Virus genome (UHGV): UHGV-0018639
Strand: one strand, 5' to 3'
From: a virus
Length of the DNA stretch: 64,000 nt
The notes below the pieces were generated by a model. That model was given only the letters and a program-made list of their open reading frames with translations, was not told the DNA's origin and made no database searches. The position numbers and the translations under genes were made by a program. Shown in pieces: positions 9,649 to 58,738 of this stretch. How positions within the stretch are numbered: the stretch's first letter is position 1; each line of letters starts with the position of its first letter.

Positions 9649-9720
9649 TACATATAGAAAGGACTTCCTTTCCTTTTTATAATATAATTATATCACAAAA
9701 AGATAAGGAAGTCAAATTTT

Positions 9721-50348: not shown

Positions 50349-50434
50349 GCGGGACTGGTGTAATTGGTAGCCACATTTGATTTAAGCTCAAATGGCCTTT
50401 GGTCGTAAGGGTTCGAGTCCCTTGTCCCGCACCA
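50349..50434 (+). tRNA. tRNA-Leu(UAA), type II
   Basis: Acceptor gcgggac/gtcccgc. Anticodon arm tttga-tttaagc-tcaaa. Long variable arm. 3' CCA encoded. Confidence 0.7.
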
Positions 50435-50501
50435 ATTGCCGTTTTCAGTGGCGGCTTAGAAACAGTTCTCAAAGAAGTATCAAAAAGAAAGGAGAAAATG
50501 A

Positions 50502-51404
50502 ATGTCATTTTTCGTAAGAACAGTAACTGATCGGTATGGGGATACAAATACTTATCCTCGTTGGGGCAGAATAGTGGGGTGCGCTATAGGGGCACTACTT
50601 GTTCTAATTATAATTCTCTCTTGTTTTACTAAAGTTCCTACTGGCAATACTGGTATTGTCACTACATTTGGTAAGGTTGAGAATTATACATTGGATTCAG
50701 GCTTTCATCTAAAAGCTCCGTGGCAGAAGATAGTTAAGATGGATAATCGAGTACAGAAGCAGAGTATTGATTTGATGTGTTTCTCTTCTGATATTCAGGA
50801 AGTCTCTATGACTTATACAATTAACTTCCAGATTAGTAAGAGCGATGCAATGACGATTTATTCTACCATCGGCACTCATTATTATGAAACCGTTATTATG
50901 CCTTGTATTACCGAGTCAGTTAAGACAGTTTGTGCACGATATACCGCAGAAGAGCTAGTGGGCATGAGAAGTGAACTTGCTTCAGCAATAGAGGAAGATC
51001 TTTCTGAGAAATTAATTAATTACAACATAGAGCTTGTTTCTACTTCTGTTGAGAACATGGATTTCACTGATGTCTTTACTGATGCTGTTGAAGCAAAGCA
51101 GGTTGCAGCACAGAATAAGCTCACCGCACAGACTCGTGCTGAGCAGGAAGTTATTGAAGCCGAAGCAGCGGCTAAGGTTCAGGTAATTCAGGCACAGGCT
51201 GATGCAGATGCAATGGTGGCTAAGGCTCAGGCCGAAGCAGAAGCGACTCGAATTCGTGCAGAAGCCGAAGCAGAAGCCAACGCGAAGGTTGCCGCGTCTC
51301 TAACAAATGCGCTAATTGATTATACTTATGCACAGCATTGGGATGGTAAGTATCCTACCTATTATGGTGGTAATGGTACGACTCCTGTTATCGATCTTAG
51401 ATAA
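50502..51404 (+). CDS. SPFH/band-7 (prohibitin/HflC-like) membrane protein
   Basis: N-terminal TM. VPTGNTGIVTTFGKV..GFHLKAPWQKIVKMDNRVQ SPFH core. Ala/Glu-rich coiled-coil tail. Confidence 0.65.
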   Translation: MSFFVRTVTDRYGDTNTYPRWGRIVGCAIGALLVLIIILSCFTKVPTGNTGIVTTFGKVENYTLDSGFHLKAPWQKIVKMDNRVQKQSIDLMCFSSDIQEVSMTYTINFQISKSDAMTIYSTIGTHYYETVIMPCITESVKTVCARYTAEELVGMRSELASAIEEDLSEKLINYNIELVSTSVENMDFTDVFTDAVEAKQVAAQNKLTAQTRAEQEVIEAEAAAKVQVIQAQADADAMVAKAQAEAEATRIRAEAEAEANAKVAASLTNALIDYTYAQHWDGKYPTYYGGNGTTPVIDLR

Positions 51405-51643
51405 ATAAATGAGCTGGCATCTCAATAAACTGCCATTAATATGGGTCAGTAGCGAATCGGCAAACGCAACGGGCTGTAAACCCGTCTCCTTCGGGAATAA
51501 TTGGATCGACACCAATCTGACTCACCAAGACGCAGCGGGTGTTAGATTTTCTACTGGGGAATACTGTGTCTAATATAGAGAAAATCATTTTTGTGAAATT
51601 CAAGTATATTCTAGCTAAATATACCGTAAAAGCCGGATTATAT

Positions 51644-51719
51644 GCCCAGATAGCTCAGTTGGTAGAGCAGGGGACTGAAAATTCCCGTGTCGCTGGTCCA
51701 ATTCCAGCTCTGGGCACCA
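51644..51719 (+). tRNA. tRNA-Phe(GAA)
   Basis: gcccaga acceptor. D-arm gctcagttggtagagc. Anticodon loop ctGAAaa. T-arm gctggtccaattccagc. CCA encoded. Confidence 0.8.
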
Positions 51720-51891
51720 TTTTGGGATTGTTTACTGCTTCTTGTTCCCTTGATCGTGAAAATGCATGAGTAGCGATTAAAAAACATCTAAGCGGCGTGC
51801 ATCGTTGGCCATCTGAGGGCTGCGTTAAGGCTTAAAAGGCCACAATCGATTGGGGTTGGTAAACCTCCTGCGGGGAAGCTTCCATTATTAT

Positions 51892-51974
51892 GGGCAAGTG
51901 GTGGAACTGGTAGACACAACAGTCTTAGACGCTGTCGCTTCGGTATAGGGGTTCGAGTCCCCTCCTGCCCACCA
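51892..51974 (+). tRNA. tRNA-Leu(UAG), type II
   Basis: Anticodon arm acagt-ctTAGac-gctgt. Long variable arm. T-arm ggggttcgagtcccc. One A-C mismatch in the acceptor stem. Confidence 0.6.
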
Positions 51975-52094
51975 TAAGTCTCCAAGAGGATGGATTTCGG
52001 CTAAACTACCACCGGCGCACAATGTGTGATATGTGGCTTTGTCATTTGTGGAGACTATAATAAATAAAAACGAAAGTAAGCCGACTTTTGAAAT

Positions 52095-52178
52095 GCAGGA
52101 TTGGTGGAATTGGCAGACACGGTGGATTCAAGTCCCACTGCTTTTAGCATAAGAGTTCAAGTCTCTTATCCTGCACCA
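52095..52178 (+). tRNA. type II tRNA, probably tRNA-Leu(CAA)
   Basis: Acceptor gcaggat/atcctgc. Leu-like D-arm tggtggaattggcagacac. Anticodon loop ttCAAgt with one mismatch closing the stem. Long variable arm. Confidence 0.55.
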
Positions 52179-52307
52179 TTGGTGGTCACTAGGGTTGTAT
52201 TCTTCTCAAGCCAAGTGAGTAGTGTTGATGAAACGAAATAGATGGTAAACAAATAATTGAGATTAAGTATGCAACCCGTTGTATTATTTTAATGAAAGGA
52301 GATAAAA

Positions 52308-52892
52308 ATGTCAGCAAATTTTTATATTAGCGATATCCATTTTGGGCATAAAAATATAATAAAATTTGATCATCGTCCTTTTAGTAGTGTTGATGAAATG
52401 AACAGCATACTTATTGCAAATTGGAATGATATAGTTGGTCACAATGATAATATCTACGTTCTTGGTGATTTTTGCTGGGGTAAATCTGATGAGTGGATTG
52501 ATATTCTGTCTCAACTCAAAGGTAATAAGTATCTCATTGCTGGTAATCACGACTTGCGTAATCCTCCTTCAGATGTGCGGCGTTTCTTTCAGGATTGGCG
52601 CGACTACAAAGAAATTTTTGACAATGGCCGCAAGGTTATAATGTGCCATTATCCAATTCCGTTCTATAAGTCAGACTATAATTCAGATACTTATATGTTG
52701 TTTGGTCATTTGCACACAACATTTGAGAATGGGTATATTGAGGATTTGCGCGAACGGATAGAGCACGATCCATATGAGCGTTCAGCAAAAAATCTTTGCC
52801 AGTTTTATAACGTTGGTTGTATGATGCCTTGGATGGAATACAAGCCGCACACGTTGGATGAGATTGTTGAGGGGTTTGGTAAATATCACTAA
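52308..52892 (+). CDS. calcineurin-like metallophosphoesterase
   Basis: DIHFGH, LGDFCWG, GNHDL, CHYP..GHLH motifs. RBS aaaggagat. Confidence 0.7.
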   Translation: MSANFYISDIHFGHKNIIKFDHRPFSSVDEMNSILIANWNDIVGHNDNIYVLGDFCWGKSDEWIDILSQLKGNKYLIAGNHDLRNPPSDVRRFFQDWRDYKEIFDNGRKVIMCHYPIPFYKSDYNSDTYMLFGHLHTTFENGYIEDLRERIEHDPYERSAKNLCQFYNVGCMMPWMEYKPHTLDEIVEGFGKYH

Positions 52893-52902
52893 ACCCACAT
52901 AT

Positions 52903-52991
52903 GCGGGATGAACTCAGACGGCTCTGAGACCGGTCTTGAAAACCGTGGGCAGGTGAAAGCTTGTGGGGATCGACACCTCCGTCCCGCGCCA
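52903..52991 (+). tRNA. atypical type II tRNA-Ser(UGA) with 8/4-like acceptor/T-stem and 6-bp D-stem (allo-tRNA/tRNA-Sec-like architecture)
   Basis: Anticodon arm ccggt-cttgaaa-accg is nearly identical to E. coli tRNA-Ser(UGA). The 5' gcgggatg pairs with cgtcccgc (8 bp). D-arm ctcaga-cggc-tctgag is a 6-bp stem with a 4-nt loop. The variable arm is 20 nt. T-stem gggg/cctc is 4 bp with T-loop atcgaca. Ends gCCA. Confidence 0.6.
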
Positions 52992-53087
52992 GTATGCGGA
53001 GTCAACCAGTAAGGTGCTGGACTCGCCTGCTAAGCGATGTGTAGCTATTCGGCTATTTGGTTCGTGTCCAAGGCTCCGCGCCAATAT

Positions 53088-53163
53088 GTGTCCTTAGTCC
53101 AATCGGTAGAACAACAGACTGTTAATCTGTAGGGTATAGGTTCAAATCCTATAGGACACGCCA
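53088..53163 (+). tRNA. tRNA-Asn(GUU)
   Basis: Acceptor gtgtcct/aggacac. Anticodon arm acaga-ctGTTaa-tctgt. T-arm ataggttcaaatcctat. CCA encoded. Confidence 0.75.
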
Positions 53164-53166
53164 TAT

Positions 53167-53243
53167 GCGCCATTAGCTCAGTTGGTAGTAGCACTTGATT
53201 TTTAATCAAGGAGTCCGCGGTTCAAGTCCGCGATGGCGCACCA
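53167..53243 (+). tRNA. tRNA-Lys(UUU)
   Basis: Acceptor gcgccat/atggcgc. Anticodon arm cttga-ttTTTaa-tcaag. T-arm cgcggttcaagtccgcg. CCA encoded. Confidence 0.75.
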
Positions 53244-53264
53244 TAATTTTTGGAGGAAGTAAAA

Positions 53265-54385
53265 TGAAATTAACAGAAAAGGGGGTTGCCGCGTTTGCCG
53301 CAGCGTTAGAGCACTGCCCCAATGAATCTTTTTCAGCGGCCAGCCTTTCAGCAAAGTGCGGCGCCTCTATTTCTGCAGCTACACTCAATGGTATTGTCAA
53401 TCAGGGACTTATGACTCGACTTGGTGGTTCGCCTGTCAAGTTTGAATTAGTGCCTAACGCGAAAGACTTGTATAGCAAGGCGCGCGAAGATAAGCCAGCC
53501 AACGAAAATCTTCGTAAAGCACAGGCCGCGAAAAATGATGAGTTTTATACTCGGTATCAGGATATCGAAAAAGAAGTCTTACAGTATGACTTGCGTGGCA
53601 AAAAGATTCTGTGCAATTGCAATGATGGGTTAGATAGTGAATTTACAAATTTCTTTATGGCAAATTTTGAAGCACTTGGACTCGCCGAAGTCGTTTGTCT
53701 GAGTTATGAGAAAGAAAAGCTTGCTTTCAAAACGGTTAGGCGCACACCCACAAAGCCCGATATAAAAGTTGAAGTAGCACGGATTCCCCTTAAAGGAAAC
53801 GGGGCTTTTGATTCATGCGAAGGTCGAGAAGCTTTAGCGGCCTGTGATGTTGTTATCACTAATCCGCCGTTCAGTCGGTTTCGTGAATTTGTCAATTTGA
53901 TTTTGTCTTACAAGAAAGACTTTTTGATAATTGGCAGTAAAAACGCTATTACTTATAAAGAGTTCTTTCCTCTTCTAATGAATGGCAAAGTTCATATTGG
54001 CAATTATAATGTTTCTACTTTTAAACAGCCCGATGATACTGAGAAGAGATTTGGAAACATTGGTTGGTTTACGACCCTTCCTGTCGCAAAGGCCACACAG
54101 CCAATTCCTTTAACAGCAACCTACGATTCCGTCAATTATCCTGCCTATGATAATTTTCATGCAATCGAGGTAAGCCGCACAGCTAACATTCCAAAAGATT
54201 ATGATGGTGTGATGGGCGTTCCTATTTCATTCCTTGATAAGTTTTGTCCTACTCAATTTAAAATTGTTGGATGGAGCAGACATAATGATGAAGGAATGGA
54301 CGGCGGATATTGGACGGGCGGTTGTGCAGATGCTACTATAAATGGTAAACGAGTTTATCGTAGAATTTTGATTCAGAAAATTTGA
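53265..54385 (+). CDS. N6-adenine DNA methyltransferase
   Basis: Catalytic motif IV DVVITNPPFS. AdoMet-binding-like ILCNCNDG. RBS ggaggaag upstream of MKLTEKG. The ORF-track start at 53195 lies inside tRNA-Lys and was rejected. Confidence 0.6.
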
Positions 54386-54410
54386 TTTTTATCAAAATTT
54401 TCGATATAAT
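54382..54410 (+). promoter_or_regulatory. sigma70-like promoter (conserved phage motif)
   Basis: aaaaTTTGATTtttatcaaaattttcgaTATAATatatatagaaagttgagag. Confidence 0.55.
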
Positions 54411-54553
54411 ATATATAGAAAGTTGAGAGAAATGGTTCTAACAAGCCAGCGTGCGCGCGAGTAAAAGTTGTTAGTAAGCGGTTGGCATACGTGATAAGCC
54501 ATTGCCCCAGCGAGAAGATTTAATAAATCTTCTTTGTTGGCGGTGTTCAATTT

Positions 54554-54627
54554 CGGGGATGTGGTGTAATGGTAGCACACTTGATTTGGGGTCAAGAAGA
54601 GTGGTTCAAATCCAACATTTCCGGCCA
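54554..54627 (+). tRNA. tRNA-Pro(UGG)
   Basis: Anticodon arm cttga-ttTGGgg-tcaag. Acceptor cggggat/atttccg with two G-U pairs. Imperfect T-stem. CCA encoded. Confidence 0.55.
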
Positions 54628-54634
54628 TAAAAAT

Positions 54635-54721
54635 GCTGAGTTCCCATAGTGGTCGATTGGAGCGGTTTTGTAAGCCGCAGACTTCGTGTCCGCATCAGTT
54701 CGAATCTGATACTCAGCTCCA
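54635..54721 (+). tRNA. 87-nt tRNA with long variable arm and UGU (Thr-type) anticodon in the 7-nt loop register
   Basis: Perfect acceptor gctgagt/actcagc. Perfect T-arm atcag-ttcgaat-ctgat. Anticodon arm gcggt-ttTGTaa-gccgc, which needs a U-G closing pair; GUA lies one nt 3'. 15-nt variable region agacttcgtgtccgc. CCA encoded. Confidence 0.55.
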
Positions 54722-54725
54722 CTAT

Positions 54726-54801
54726 AAGAGAGTAGCCCAATAGGTAAGGCAGCAGTCTCCAAAACTGAAGATTAAAGGTTCAATTCCTTTCTCTCTTGCC
54801 A
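54726..54801 (+). tRNA. tRNA-Trp(CCA)
   Basis: Acceptor aagagag/ctctctt. Anticodon loop ctCCAaa. T-arm aaaggttcaattccttt. CCA encoded. Confidence 0.65.
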
Positions 54802-54843
54802 ACAATTTCATTTTTTCATTTTTCAAATTTCCTTTCTTAAAAT

Positions 54844-54872
54844 TTGACTTTTTCAAAAAATCTTGATATAAT
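54844..54872 (+). promoter_or_regulatory. sigma70-like promoter driving the large noncoding region and tRNA-Met
   Basis: aaaaTTTGACTttttcaaaaaatcttgaTATAATatatac. Perfect -35 and -10 boxes with a 17-nt spacer. Confidence 0.6.
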
Positions 54873-54896
54873 ATATACATAAGATAAAGAAAAGAA

Positions 54897-55616
54897 AAAG
54901 TCAAAAGGAGGACGATGCTAGTGCCACCTACACGTGGTATCCTCTGTTTTCGCTAAGAGCGCTGGCATATATTCAATTAAATAATACTAACTCAGTGAAG
55001 ACGGAATTCGATGTTCCGGCTGAGAAATTCTAGCTAGCACAGCAGAAACGAAACAAGGATACTTGTGGATACTGGACTGGGAGGCCATCGAGAGATGAGC
55101 CGAAGTAGAGCGGTTGCTCAAGTGGGAAGAAGAGCAGGAATTGTGCTGAGTGAATCGCAAGTAAACGCAGCCGTGGAGTGGCGGGCGCAATAGATAGCTT
55201 GGTGAATAGCCAAGCCGAATCCAAGTTAGGTTTTAGTTGGTGACTGTGACAATCCTTGGAAAAGCCAATAAGCTCGTTCCGTTGAGACGACAGGGAATGT
55301 GAAATCTGTCTTTGACACTCTACAGTATCCGAGTAGCGGAACACAACGGGGACTTTAGATTAAAAAGATGTTGACAGTAATAGAAATTACTACTTTCTGA
55401 ACATCCCGTGAAAGGTAGAGGTAATCAATCCTCTGGCGGATTAGGCGACATTAGACACTTGGGGTTATCCAAGACTAACAAGTCAATGTTGTTGCTGGGG
55501 TAAGAAGTGTATGGGCGACGGCCTGTATGCTCAGACTTATCTCCCGCGTGGCAGAATATGCTTGAAGGTTTATCGAGGTAGGGCGAAGGCCCAGTAATAT
55601 TTAGTTGGATTTATAT
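54897..55616 (+). ncRNA. candidate large structured noncoding RNA (about 720 nt) co-transcribed with tRNA-Met
   Basis: No credible ORF. GC content is locally elevated with many local hairpins. Strong consensus promoter upstream. tRNA and terminator immediately downstream. Context matches that reported for GOLLD/ROOL-class large phage ncRNAs. Confidence 0.35.
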
Positions 55617-55689
55617 GGCAGGAAGAGAAGGTTCTCCGTTTGGCCTCATAAGCCAGACTTCGTAGGTTCGATTCCTACTCCTGCAACCA
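55617..55689 (+). tRNA. tRNA-Met(CAU) (possibly initiator-like; alternatively a lysidine tRNA-Ile2)
   Basis: Anticodon arm tttggc-ctCATaa-gccaga. T-arm gtaggttcgattcctac. Acceptor ggcagga/tcctgca with a 1:72 G-A mismatch. CCA encoded. Confidence 0.6.
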
Positions 55690-55714
55690 AGGAAGATGCT
55701 TCTTCCTCCGTTTT
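55690..55714 (+). terminator. rho-independent terminator
   Basis: ggaaga-tgc-ttcttcc followed by tccgtttt. Confidence 0.55.
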
Positions 55715-55857
55715 AAAAAATGTCTTGAACGACAGGAGGTTTTGCTTATGGACATAACAAAATCTAATGAGGACTTTAGTCCAACGAACAAGGCAAAGAG
55801 TTGGGCTTCTCTATAAAAAAGCCCTCGTTTAAAAAAAATGAAAGGAAGTAAGAAAAA

Positions 55858-56286
55858 ATGAAGTATTATAGTGATGTTCTTCATAGTTTATTTGATACTC
55901 AGGATGCGCTCGAAAAAGCCGAAGCTGAGAAGAAAGAAAAAGATGACGAAAAAGTTCGTCAGAAGGAAAATGCTGATAAGCTCAAGGCCGAGGATAAGAA
56001 GCGTTTTCTTGAGCTAAGAGAGAGGTATTTTAAAGCAAGTGTTGAGTATGAAGCATATTTTGATAAATTGCTGAATAACTACTCATTTAACACCATAATG
56101 GGCTGGGTGTCTGAAGCGGCTACTAAAAAGACCCAGACCCAGACCCAGATTAAGACGATAGATCAGACGGCTGAAAGTATTTTTGATGCTTGCAAGTCAG
56201 CTAAAACTGTCAAAACCGCAAAAACGGCGCGTGAGCCTGAAAATTTGGGAGAAATTCTTATTCGTATTTTTGAGGATATGCAGTAA
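55858..56286 (+). CDS. hypothetical protein (charged coiled-coil N-terminus)
   Basis: RBS gaaaggaag upstream. 142 aa. Confidence 0.35.
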   Translation: MKYYSDVLHSLFDTQDALEKAEAEKKEKDDEKVRQKENADKLKAEDKKRFLELRERYFKASVEYEAYFDKLLNNYSFNTIMGWVSEAATKKTQTQTQIKTIDQTAESIFDACKSAKTVKTAKTAREPENLGEILIRIFEDMQ

Positions 56287-56289
56287 GAA

Positions 56290-56847
56290 TTTTAAATAAA
56301 TCAGGTTACTTGATCATCGGGTTTCCTGCGGAGTTAAAGCTAAAACGTTAGCGGTGAATATGGCCATTCCCGCAAGCTCGGCGACTTGTTAGGCAATCGC
56401 GCTGATGTAAATTATTGATAAGGGAGCTTTGGTATAATTTATTCACTGGGGCTTTCCAAAAGTCGGACTCAAGCCTAAACTGAGTTCGCAGTGCTGAGGT
56501 CGGTATTCGCTCGGAGAGGATGCGTTATTGAGCTAATTAGATTAGCATCAATGTGAGGCAACGGTGGCCAACTCTTAGAGAGCCACGCGATAGAGTTATG
56601 TTAAAAGGCAATACTCAGTATCGGTGCTACTAGGGTTGATAGACAAGTAGTAAAAGTCAGGTGAAGATAATACCGGCTGACATAATTGGGACGTAGCTAT
56701 AGGCGTAGGCCGTGCCAGAACTAAAGTGTGCGGCACACGAAACCCAAGTCAGATGCGGGCGATTGAAACGGCGCCCTCAACCCATATAAGGTTTTACAAG
56801 AGATTTTCCTTGCGTTAGGCTAAAAAATCTCTTTTCTATATAAATTT
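56290..56847 (+). ncRNA. candidate large structured noncoding RNA (about 560 nt) immediately 5' of tRNA-Gln
   Basis: No ORF. Noticeably higher GC than the flanking sequence. Numerous hairpins. Ends in tRNA-Gln plus terminator. Second such region within 2 kb. Confidence 0.35.
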
Positions 56848-56922
56848 AGAGGTATAGTGTAATTGGCAACACATCGGCCTTTGACGCCGTATTTATAGGT
56901 TCAAGTCCTGTTACCTCTGCCA
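56848..56922 (+). tRNA. tRNA-Gln(UUG)
   Basis: Acceptor agaggta/tacctct. D-arm gtgtaattggcaacac. Anticodon loop ctTTGac. T-arm ataggttcaagtcctgt. CCA encoded. Confidence 0.7.
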
Positions 56923-56926
56923 ACAG

Positions 56927-56962
56927 CTCCACATTAGAAAAGCCTAATGTGGACTTTTTTAT
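56927..56962 (+). terminator. rho-independent terminator
   Basis: ccacattag-aaaagc-ctaatgtgg followed by acttttttat. Confidence 0.6.
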
Positions 56963-57029
56963 ATATATCAGCTACAAAAAATCTACTTAGAAATGCGGGC
57001 AACCGCAAAACGTATCAAAGGAGGAGCCT

Positions 57030-57653
57030 ATGGAAGAATTAGGTCTGTTATTGGGTTTGGGAGATGATGCTAACTATCAGCTTGCTAATCCAAGCCTGTT
57101 AGCGTATTATAAAGAACTCAATGAGCGTCGTCTCTGGCTCGATTGCGAGGTAGATGATGAAGCGATAGGTGATATGTGCCGCCAGATTATTCATTGGAAT
57201 AAGGAGGATGACACAATAGAGCCTTCGAAGAGGAAAAAGATTATTATCTATTTTGTCAGCCCCGGTGGTAGTTTAGACAGCTATCTATGGCTCAAAGACG
57301 TAATAAATCTGAGTATTACTCCAATAGTTGGCATTATGATGAGCCGCACAGCTAGCGCGGCTGCTCTTATTTACCTTCATTGTCACGAGCGTTATGCTCT
57401 TGAAAGCGCAAAGATTTTGTTCCACTACGGTTCAATTTCTCTTGCACAGGACGCCGCGAATGCGATTGAATCGATGAAGAAGTATGAGCAAGAAGTTGGG
57501 AAGTTTGTTGATGTAATTCGTGAGCACTCTGACTTTTCAGGCGAATATATTCGTGATAAGTTGGTAAAGGATTGGGAGCTTACGGCTGATGAAGCTCTTG
57601 AGCACGGCATTGTTCAAAAGATTGTAAGTGATATCAGCGAACTTTGGAACTAA
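57030..57653 (+). CDS. ClpP-family serine protease-like protein
   Basis: ClpP signature IYFVSPGGS. Ser region MMSRTASAAALIY matching GxAAS(M)G. His region ILFHYG matching IHQP. RBS aaaggagga. Confidence 0.6.
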   Translation: MEELGLLLGLGDDANYQLANPSLLAYYKELNERRLWLDCEVDDEAIGDMCRQIIHWNKEDDTIEPSKRKKIIIYFVSPGGSLDSYLWLKDVINLSITPIVGIMMSRTASAAALIYLHCHERYALESAKILFHYGSISLAQDAANAIESMKKYEQEVGKFVDVIREHSDFSGEYIRDKLVKDWELTADEALEHGIVQKIVSDISELWN

Positions 57654-57665
57654 AGGAGGACTCCT

Positions 57666-57986
57666 ATGGATAAATATACTGGCTATTACGAATGGCGCCC
57701 ATCAGAGCAAGGGCTTGAGGACTTTTATTCTGGCTTTTTTACTCCTGCGGGGATGGGTCTGGTAGAAAACCAGTATTTGATTATCTATGACGCTGATGGC
57801 AAAGTTATAGATAAATATTTTTGTAAGAACAACGAGTTTGAGAAAGTTCATTATATGACACTCCAAAGCGATTACTGCGGCGTTATCAAACCGCGCAATG
57901 TGTATCAGGAACTAGCAATTCACGCACTGTTAGATAGGCGTGTTCCTGTAAAGGCGCTGGGTGGTGTTTTTGGTTCGGGTAAATAA
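57666..57986 (+). CDS. phoH: PhoH-like ATPase, exon 1 (ends in Walker A GSGK)
   Basis: IKPRNVYQELAIHALLDRRVPVKALGGVFGSGK parallels PhoH I.P.t.gQ..yi.a......vfgiGpAGtGKT. Stop immediately after the K. Confidence 0.6.
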   Translation: MDKYTGYYEWRPSEQGLEDFYSGFFTPAGMGLVENQYLIIYDADGKVIDKYFCKNNEFEKVHYMTLQSDYCGVIKPRNVYQELAIHALLDRRVPVKALGGVFGSGK

Positions 57987-58212
57987 CTTGCCCCTTCTTA
58001 GGGCGACCTAAGAATGAAAATCGCGTGAATTGCTGGAAACCTAAGCCGCGAGGTATGGTAATCAGCAGCCAAGCCGTTTAACAACGGAAGGTTCAACGAC
58101 TATCCCGACAGGGAGTAGGGAGCAATCCCGAAGTGCGCGACAACTTTCAAAGTTGATGATATAGTCTAATCCCCTTTTGAAATATCGGGAAACCGAGGGT
58201 ATAAATGAAGGA
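57987..58212 (+). mobile_element. ORF-less group I intron in phoH (boundaries approximate)
   Basis: About 225-nt non-coding insert exactly at the P-loop. Contains ggtatggtaatcagcagccaagcc, resembling the Tetrahymena intron segment GGUAUGGUAAUAAGCUGACGG...CAGCCAAGUCC (P5/P6-J6/7). Also contains gatgatatagtct. Confidence 0.55.
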
Positions 58213-58738
58213 CTTCCTAATGAGCGGTGCCTGTTTCAGTCTTATCGAAAAAGGCATCTTTGAAAAACTCGTATATATACGCCCTAACATTACACTTGAA
58301 GGTGTGCCTGACATCGGCTATCTCAAGGGTGGAATGGATGAAAAACTTGAATGGACTTTAGCTCCATTATGGGATAAGTTCGGTGGCCGCGAAGCTACTC
58401 AAAATCTTGTTGCTTCTGGCAAGATTGAACTTGTGGCTTTGCCTTTTATTAAAGGTCGTAGCTTTGAGAACAGTATTATCTATGTAAGTGAAGGTCAAAA
58501 TATAACCCGCAAAGTAGCTGGTAATATTATAAGCCGCGCTGGTGAAAACACTGAGATTTGGATAAATGGCGACTATCACAGTCAAACTGACCGTAGAATG
58601 TTTGAGATTGATAATGGTATGCGCGCAATGGAAGAGACTCTGAAGGGTAATTCATTATATGAAACCCTTTATCTCCCAATCACGGAACGTTCGGCTGTTG
58701 CACAGCTTGCTGGAATTGTTTGCAATACTGAAAATTGA
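58213..58738 (+). CDS. phoH: PhoH-like ATPase, exon 2
   Basis: (K)DFLMSGACFSLIEKGIFEKLVYIRPNITLEGVPDIGYLKGGMDEKLEWTLAPLWD; ELVALPFIKGRSFENSIIYVSEGQNIT; GENTEIWINGDYHSQTD. All three match the PhoH core. Confidence 0.65.

Follow-up and report, generated by a model that had tools for sequence, protein, structure and literature searches.

Positions 54967-55612 (+ strand) of the window encode a full-length ROOL RNA. The phage is a large one that has not been cultivated, and the RNA lies in its tRNA island. (The window is the whole stretch of DNA that was analyzed, 64,000 nucleotides of the virus genome UHGV-0018639.) The RNA belongs to the ROOL family, it has a conserved secondary structure that covaries, it is non-coding, and it has a dedicated near-consensus promoter. 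We are highly confident in this reading as a whole, of which the maturation and the assembly into a cage that we propose below form a putative part. ROOL (Rumen-Originating, Ornate, Large) was described by Weinberg and colleagues in 2017 (PMC5737381). Structures were solved in 2025: cryo-EM shows ROOL cages that are octamers for env-120 and Enterococcus faecalis and a hexamer for Ligilactobacillus salivarius (PMC12286853, PMC12191101). The same two studies describe the abundance of ROOL and its presence in phages and tRNA islands. ROOL can equal 16S rRNA in abundance, yet it is non-essential in L. salivarius and is without known function; among the roles suggested for the cage is that it encloses tRNAs or ribosomes (PMC12286853), and proposals in the literature extend to the sequestration of these or of other factors. 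The locus that we describe clearly belongs to this family and sits in the usual setting for it; it is therefore of a kind that is already known and is not a new class.

To identify the RNA, we scanned the whole window with Rfam 15 at gathering thresholds. ROOL (RF03087) matched across all 574 positions of the model (1-574 of 574) with a score of 268.9 bits, as compared to a gathering score of 99.1 (E = 2.3e-60). An initial annotation, which used the letters of the DNA only, had proposed a candidate large ornate non-coding RNA of the GOLLD/ROOL/HEARO kind at 54897-55616, and this was borne out, with ROOL as the family. The proposed region does hold the RNA, but the core begins about 70 nt farther downstream, after an 88-nt leader. 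We repeated the search with permissive settings by using cmscan to compare 54790-55870 to all 4227 Rfam families, with a cut-off of E <= 1. This check with Rfam models, which the initial annotation had suggested, was again positive for ROOL (E = 3.8e-62), and GOLLD, HEARO, raiA, and OLE had zero matches at that cut-off. The upper-case consensus blocks of the ROOL model are matched in the cmscan alignment. The score is among the lowest for full-length phage copies (269 bits versus up to 406).

Large RNAs of other classes share general traits with this one: they are structured, phage-borne, and found beside tRNAs. There is also a group I intron just 2.4 kb downstream of ROOL. The RNA might then be a different or new class of large non-coding RNA (GOLLD, HEARO/OMEGA, raiA, OLE, or a group I/II intron) rather than ROOL. 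However, besides ROOL, the permissive search of 54790-55870 returned only one sub-threshold tRNA and one chance hit, and the ROOL match extends over the entire model. As ROOL was the only large-RNA model to be found, we rejected the other classes, which we consider to be extremely improbable.

To compare the locus to its relatives, we searched 50,697 phages from GenBank, using blastn with distant settings for 54800-55760 and megablast for 40000-64000, but found no relative. Because GenBank phages offered no close relative, we drew comparison loci from IMG/VR, where a degenerate motif from the 3' part of ROOL retrieved 43 loci. According to Rfam, 41 of the 43 contain ROOL; in every case it lies within a group of tRNAs, often with a tmRNA gene nearby. 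Over the whole cassette, four of these contigs (L039, L005, L043, and L033; 74-132 kb) share about 95% identity with the window, and we refer to them as the relatives. In a typical lineage, a tRNA ends 18-25 nt before ROOL, and another on the same strand begins 0-40 nt after it. The closest other lineage (L003, L010, and L035) has the same order as the window, which is promoter, ROOL, and tRNA-Met.

Some other features of these loci are worth recording. Many of the phage and prophage tRNA arrays that bear ROOL have a tmRNA gene about 0.1-1.3 kb from it: this is so in L002, L006-L009, L011, L014, L016, L019-L022, and L024-L026, and also in L028, L034, L036-L038, and L047-L049. The arrays of L024 and L025 include a match to tRNA-Sec (51.5 bits) as well. 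In L004, L007, L016, L019, L021, L022, L027, and L029, the sequence CCTTGAWAA is conserved about 14 nt upstream of the start of the Rfam match; it is absent from the window's lineage. This motif may be an extension of ROOL that is not in the model, or it may be a processing site.

When we searched contigs from bacterial genomes with the ROOL 3' motif, we found 11 loci, of which only four are ROOL. All four are from Clostridia, and none of them is close to the window's lineage. The phage probably infects Bacillota: its low GC content, its AGGAGG sites, and its extended -10 promoters point to such a host, and the restriction of the bacterial ROOLs to Clostridia agrees with this.

We then asked whether the structure of the RNA is conserved. 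We used MAFFT, without structural guidance, to align the window's ROOL with 22 other distinct full-length phage ROOLs from IMG/VR, and RNAalifold predicted 97 base pairs in 19 helices from this alignment. The covariation analysis that had been suggested at the outset came out positive, as 70 of the 97 pairs have at least one compensatory double change across the 23 ROOLs. Overall, 95.2% of the cells form standard pairs, as compared to 74.0% if columns are shuffled (none of 500 shuffles reached the observed value) and only 37-45% if the partners are slid by 1-3 columns. Similarly, the covariation score is 0.593 versus about 0.1 in controls. The window's sequence forms 92 of the 97 consensus pairs. 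In the closing helix (P1), which has 18 pairs, every pair has compensatory changes, and the paired fraction of the cells is 91%. The consensus blocks of the Rfam model are invariant in this alignment. The columns for CTCAGAC...GTAGGGNGAAGNCCC are invariant by construction (this was the retrieval motif), and the covarying helices lie elsewhere.

We had also tried projecting the consensus structure line from Rfam onto the window, but just 124 of 156 pairs were canonical, so we dropped it in favor of the unguided structure from RNAalifold. Some of the pairs aligned to the model are non-canonical because the alignment from Infernal is one nucleotide out of register, relative to the best pairing, in P1 and in one other long helix (marked with "{}"). 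(Infernal's NC line flags only the pairs that score negatively.) The tertiary and quaternary contacts of the ROOL family include pseudoknots and kissing loops (P10, P13, and B1-B6). To look for such contacts, or for further helices that covary, we scanned the 23-sequence alignment for antiparallel runs, and only ambiguous candidates of 4 bp emerged.

Two parts of the RNA vary (Table 1). The A/U-rich internal linker, which is followed by the conserved UUUCUGAA, falls in the model's long loop, where the posterior probability of the alignment is low, and it differs by insertions or deletions even among relatives that are 95% identical. By its position, this linker would correspond to the disordered linker that lies inside the cage (PMC12286853). 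The other part is a hairpin expansion of 46 nt, where the model has 5 nt and the alignment shows a local-end insertion; among the 23 aligned ROOLs, it is restricted to the window's lineage. The initial annotation reported dense local hairpins in the region. This holds for the 646-nt core, which folds more stably than shuffled sequences do (z = -2.5), but not for the leader, where a hairpin that would sequester the Shine-Dalgarno (SD) sequence has a folding energy of -16.4 kcal/mol, which is the same as for shuffles (z = 0.0).

Table 1. Features of the ROOL locus and of its surroundings. Positions are those of the window.
Feature	Position	Strand	Details
SPFH/Band 7 gene	50502-51404	+	tRNA island
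Metallophosphatase gene	52308-52892	+	tRNA island
EcoRI-type adenine methyltransferase gene	53195-54385	+	tRNA island
Sigma-70/sigma-A-type promoter	54844-54872	+	TTGACT at 54844-49, 17-nt spacer, TATAAT at 54867-72
Leader (about 88 nt)	54879-54966	+	Predicted start to ROOL core; AAGGAGG at 54905-11 and 13-codon ORF
13-codon ORF MLVPPTRGILCFR	ATG at 54915, stop at 54954-56	+	After AAGGAGG at 54905-54911
ROOL RNA (RF03087)	54967-55612	+	Full-length Rfam match; covariation over 23 phage ROOLs
Closing helix P1, 5' strand	54970-54988	+	Pairs with 55593-55611
Closing helix P1, 3' strand	55593-55611	+	Unguided RNAalifold structure
A/U-rich variable internal linker	55340-55393	+	Loop; closing pairs are 55336-39 with 55406-09
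46-nt hairpin expansion	55447-55492	+	Model has 5 nt; local-end insertion (46)
tRNA-Met(CAU)-like element	55617-55689	+	ARAGORN and sub-threshold Rfam tRNA; encoded CCA
Weak terminator-like hairpin	55690-55714	+	AGGAAGA-UGCU-UCUUCCU (7 bp, A/U-rich, 55690-55707), CCG, UUUU
22-codon ORF MDITKSNEDFSPTNKAKSWASL	55748-55816	+	GGAGG 8 nt upstream
ClpP-like protease gene	57030-57653	+	tRNA island

A different explanation for the region would be a decayed protein gene, or a small gene that has not been recognized, with the RNA structure being incidental. There are open reading frames to consider: the longest ones that overlap 54897-55616 would encode 104 and 67 amino acids on the minus strand and 42 amino acids on the plus strand, and the 13-codon ORF follows AAGGAGG. 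However, no ORF of at least 30 amino acids in the region has a match in Pfam at E <= 0.1, which is in line with the initial description of the region as lacking a plausible ORF. The 13-codon ORF has just 3 nt between its SD sequence and its ATG. Furthermore, the substitutions within helices are compensatory (in 70 of 97 pairs, across the 23 homologs), which is the signature of an RNA and not of codons, and the Rfam match is to full-length ROOL. Given the covariation and the lack of Pfam matches, we rejected the decayed gene, which is very improbable. The initial annotation had named three outcomes that would speak against an RNA: a lack of Rfam hits, a lack of conservation or covariation in related phages, or homology to a protein. 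We found none of these. The GC content of 54897-55616 is 0.456, as compared to 0.385 for the whole window. Neighboring intergenic regions range from 0.17 to 0.38, with one stretch at 0.44, so the claim of elevated GC also stands.

Downstream, the region was said to run directly into a tRNA, and it does: just 5 nt (UAUAU) separate the closing helix of ROOL from a tRNA-Met-like element. ARAGORN places a tRNA-Met(CAT) at 55612-55689, with an implausible acceptor stem. The Rfam tRNA model (RF00005) matches 55618-55685 with 28.4 bits (E = 0.0014) and with deletions in the D arm. The shortfall against the gathering score (29) is slight and comes from the truncated D arm, which has shrunk to roughly GAGA/AGGU/UCUC. 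There is also a mismatch between G1 and A72. The anticodon arm, the T arm, and the CCA are normal. Among the relatives, the T stem is maintained by a double change from A-U to G-C, the T loop is altered in L039, and the homologous element from L043 scores 29.1 bits.

A terminator had been noted after the tRNA as well. There is indeed a hairpin of 7 bp followed by CCG and UUUU, but it is weak, our scan for terminators had no call downstream of the tRNA-Met-like element, and two of the relatives have something else in place of the hairpin. Exactly at its position, L043 (2437-2508) and L033 (9620-9691) have an extra tRNA (53 bits). Farther downstream, before the next gene begins, is a 22-codon ORF (MDITKSNEDFSPTNKAKSWASL) that shows five amino acid changes in the relatives.

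Upstream of the RNA is a promoter that matches TTGACA/TATAAT at 11 of 12 positions and is the best promoter-like site within 53000-58000. The initial annotation described it as a perfect consensus promoter; TTGACT-17-TATAAT is present as described, but with 11 matches out of 12, it is near-consensus rather than perfect. A TG at 54864-65 gives it an extended -10 element (TTGACT-17-TGnTATAAT), and transcription is predicted to start near A54879. TTGACT-17-TATAAT occurs seven times in the window, and there are 13 promoter-like sites that match at 11 or more of 12 positions, as compared to 3.6 in shuffled sequences. Because of these seven copies and this enrichment, we conclude that the promoter is a genuine recurring type of the phage's own. 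The copies of the cassette (aaaatTTGACTtttt-N-TATAATat) are at 9715, 23421, 28604, 32092, 32921, 33009 (-), and 54844 (+), and those at 54844 and 33009 also share their first 25 or so transcribed bases (ATAAGATAARGAAAG...).

Between the predicted start and ROOL is a leader that is nearly invariant among the four relatives (95% identity). The leader does contain the 13-codon ORF and the AAGGAGG that were initially described as an ORF with a strong ribosome binding site, but the spacing from the SD sequence to the ATG is only 3 nt (ACG). Because such close spacing is unfavorable for initiation, the ORF is probably not an efficiently translated gene. Among relatives, it has a single change, from I to V. 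We looked for a leader with an SD sequence or a mini-ORF in the other ROOL lineages and found none, so this feature is specific to the window's lineage.

How might the mature RNA be made? We propose that the host's RNA polymerase starts near 54879 and makes one precursor that comprises the leader, ROOL, and the tRNA-Met-like element. That ROOL and tRNAs are transcribed together had been put forward in 2017 (PMC5737381). RNase P would cut at the 5' end of the tRNA-like element (at about 55616/55617, or 5 nt past the closing helix), which would set the 3' end of ROOL. For bacterial RNase P, the stack of the acceptor stem on the T arm, along with CCA, is sufficient for cleavage, as with minihelix substrates. 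The tRNA-like element retains its acceptor stem, its T arm, and its CCA, which makes its cleavage by RNase P plausible. In other lineages, where ROOL has one tRNA 18-25 nt upstream and another 19-40 nt downstream, cleavage at these tRNAs would set both of its ends. Once freed, the RNA of about 650 nt would be expected, by analogy with the ROOLs of known structure, to fold flat and to self-assemble into a hollow nanocage, as a hexamer or an octamer, with the linker (roughly 55340-55393) inside.

Alternatively, ROOL might be produced mainly from a long tRNA-array precursor that reads through from upstream. On this view, TTGACT-17-TATAAT is not its functional promoter, and the tRNA-Met-like element plays no part in maturation and is just a tRNA that works or is decaying. 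Genes for tRNA-Pro, tRNA-Thr, and tRNA-Trp on the same strand end 165 nt upstream, and no terminator was called in between; also, in many lineages ROOL follows a tRNA by 18-25 nt. Promoter-like sites within 53-58 kb are not above chance expectation either (9 versus 9.7). On the other hand, the site upstream of ROOL matches at 11 of 12 positions and has an extended -10 element, it is invariant in the four related contigs, and it belongs to the seven-copy cassette that is enriched over shuffles. Eight other ROOL lineages have comparably strong sigma-70-type promoters 72-170 nt upstream of ROOL, either directly before it or before a single preceding tRNA-Thr. We therefore consider it unlikely that read-through is the main source of ROOL or that the promoter and the tRNA-like element are idle. 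Both read-through and the dedicated promoter could operate at once. Cleavage by RNase P would follow either way, and the identity of the RNA would be unchanged.

Returning to transcription from the dedicated promoter, a more specific idea is that the locus is a purpose-built cassette for making ROOL, with a strong early-type promoter, an SD-containing leader that stabilizes the RNA rather than starting translation, and a degenerating tRNA-Met that is retained mainly as a cis-acting handle for RNase P, as with mascRNA, so that the 3' end of ROOL is trimmed 5 nt beyond the closing helix. This proposal is speculative, and we would not bet on it. If it is true, then the maturation of a nanocage RNA would have been defined for the first time.

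The tRNA island (50349-57653 on the + strand) is interleaved with accessory genes (Table 1), and it includes 13 tRNAs at 50349-56922. The window also contains genes for a phage DNA polymerase, a topoisomerase II, and a ClpP-like protein. An 87-nt tRNA (54635-54721, + strand) has the anticodon UGU (Thr) and a long variable arm that forms a stem; it is conserved in L039 and L043. The type II shape, with a long variable arm, is normally seen only for Leu, Ser, and Tyr tRNAs. This tRNA could be mis-decoding or be otherwise unusual among phage tRNAs. The group I intron downstream of ROOL (RF00028; 57971-58189; 88 bits) splits a phoH-like gene (57666-58738, + strand): the last residues of exon 1 are the Walker A motif GSGK, and the ORF at 58205-58738 matches PhoH in Pfam (8.5e-23). 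The intron in the phoH-like gene is also present in L005 and L033.

ROOL is among the few natural RNAs that are known to form a closed, RNA-only cage that is bigger than a ribosome. In this phage, whose genome would be about 74-132 kb judging from the related contigs, it is encoded in a compact and clearly bounded predicted transcription unit (promoter, leader, ROOL, and tRNA-like element). Such a unit is a convenient construct for studying the expression and trimming of ROOL, and it would allow the neighboring tRNAs to be probed as cargo, as processing signals, or as merely co-transcribed. The result also indicates that the cue behind the initial annotation is a reliable one for ornate RNAs: a strong promoter, several hundred GC-enriched bases that lack ORFs, and a tRNA as a neighbor. 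A single Rfam search then settles the matter.

Like other members of its family, the window's ROOL has a long closing helix that unites its 5' and 3' ends, a variable internal linker, a location in a phage tRNA island, and no coding potential. It contains the family's motifs CAGUGAAGA, CAAUAGA, UUCUGAA, GUGAAAG, GUAAUCAAUCC, GCUCAGACUUAUCUCC, and GUAGGGCGAAGGCCC. Its length of 646 nt places it toward the upper end of the family's range (the average is 581 nt). It differs modestly from other ROOLs in its lineage-specific 46-nt hairpin expansion (55447-55492), in its 88-nt leader, whose SD-like sequence and mini-ORF are missing elsewhere, and in being followed after 5 nt by a tRNA-Met-like element with a reduced D arm.

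Among other large RNAs, GOLLD (RF01998) also builds an RNA-only nanocage, which is a 14-mer, and one of the GOLLDs that has been studied adjoins a tRNA-Met (PMC12286853). GOLLD resembles the window's RNA in being large and ornate, in its association with phages or prophages, and in its proximity to tRNAs, but the sequences and the secondary structures are unrelated. The proposed formation of the 3' end has a parallel as well. In the eukaryotic MALAT1/mascRNA system, RNase P cleaves on the 5' side of a tRNA-like structure and thereby forms the 3' end of the non-coding RNA. As at the locus in the window, a long structured non-coding RNA has a tRNA-like fold immediately 3' of it; we intend this as an analogy only. 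In contrast to mascRNA, the phage element is still a nearly complete tRNA with an encoded CCA, and it may also be a functional tRNA.
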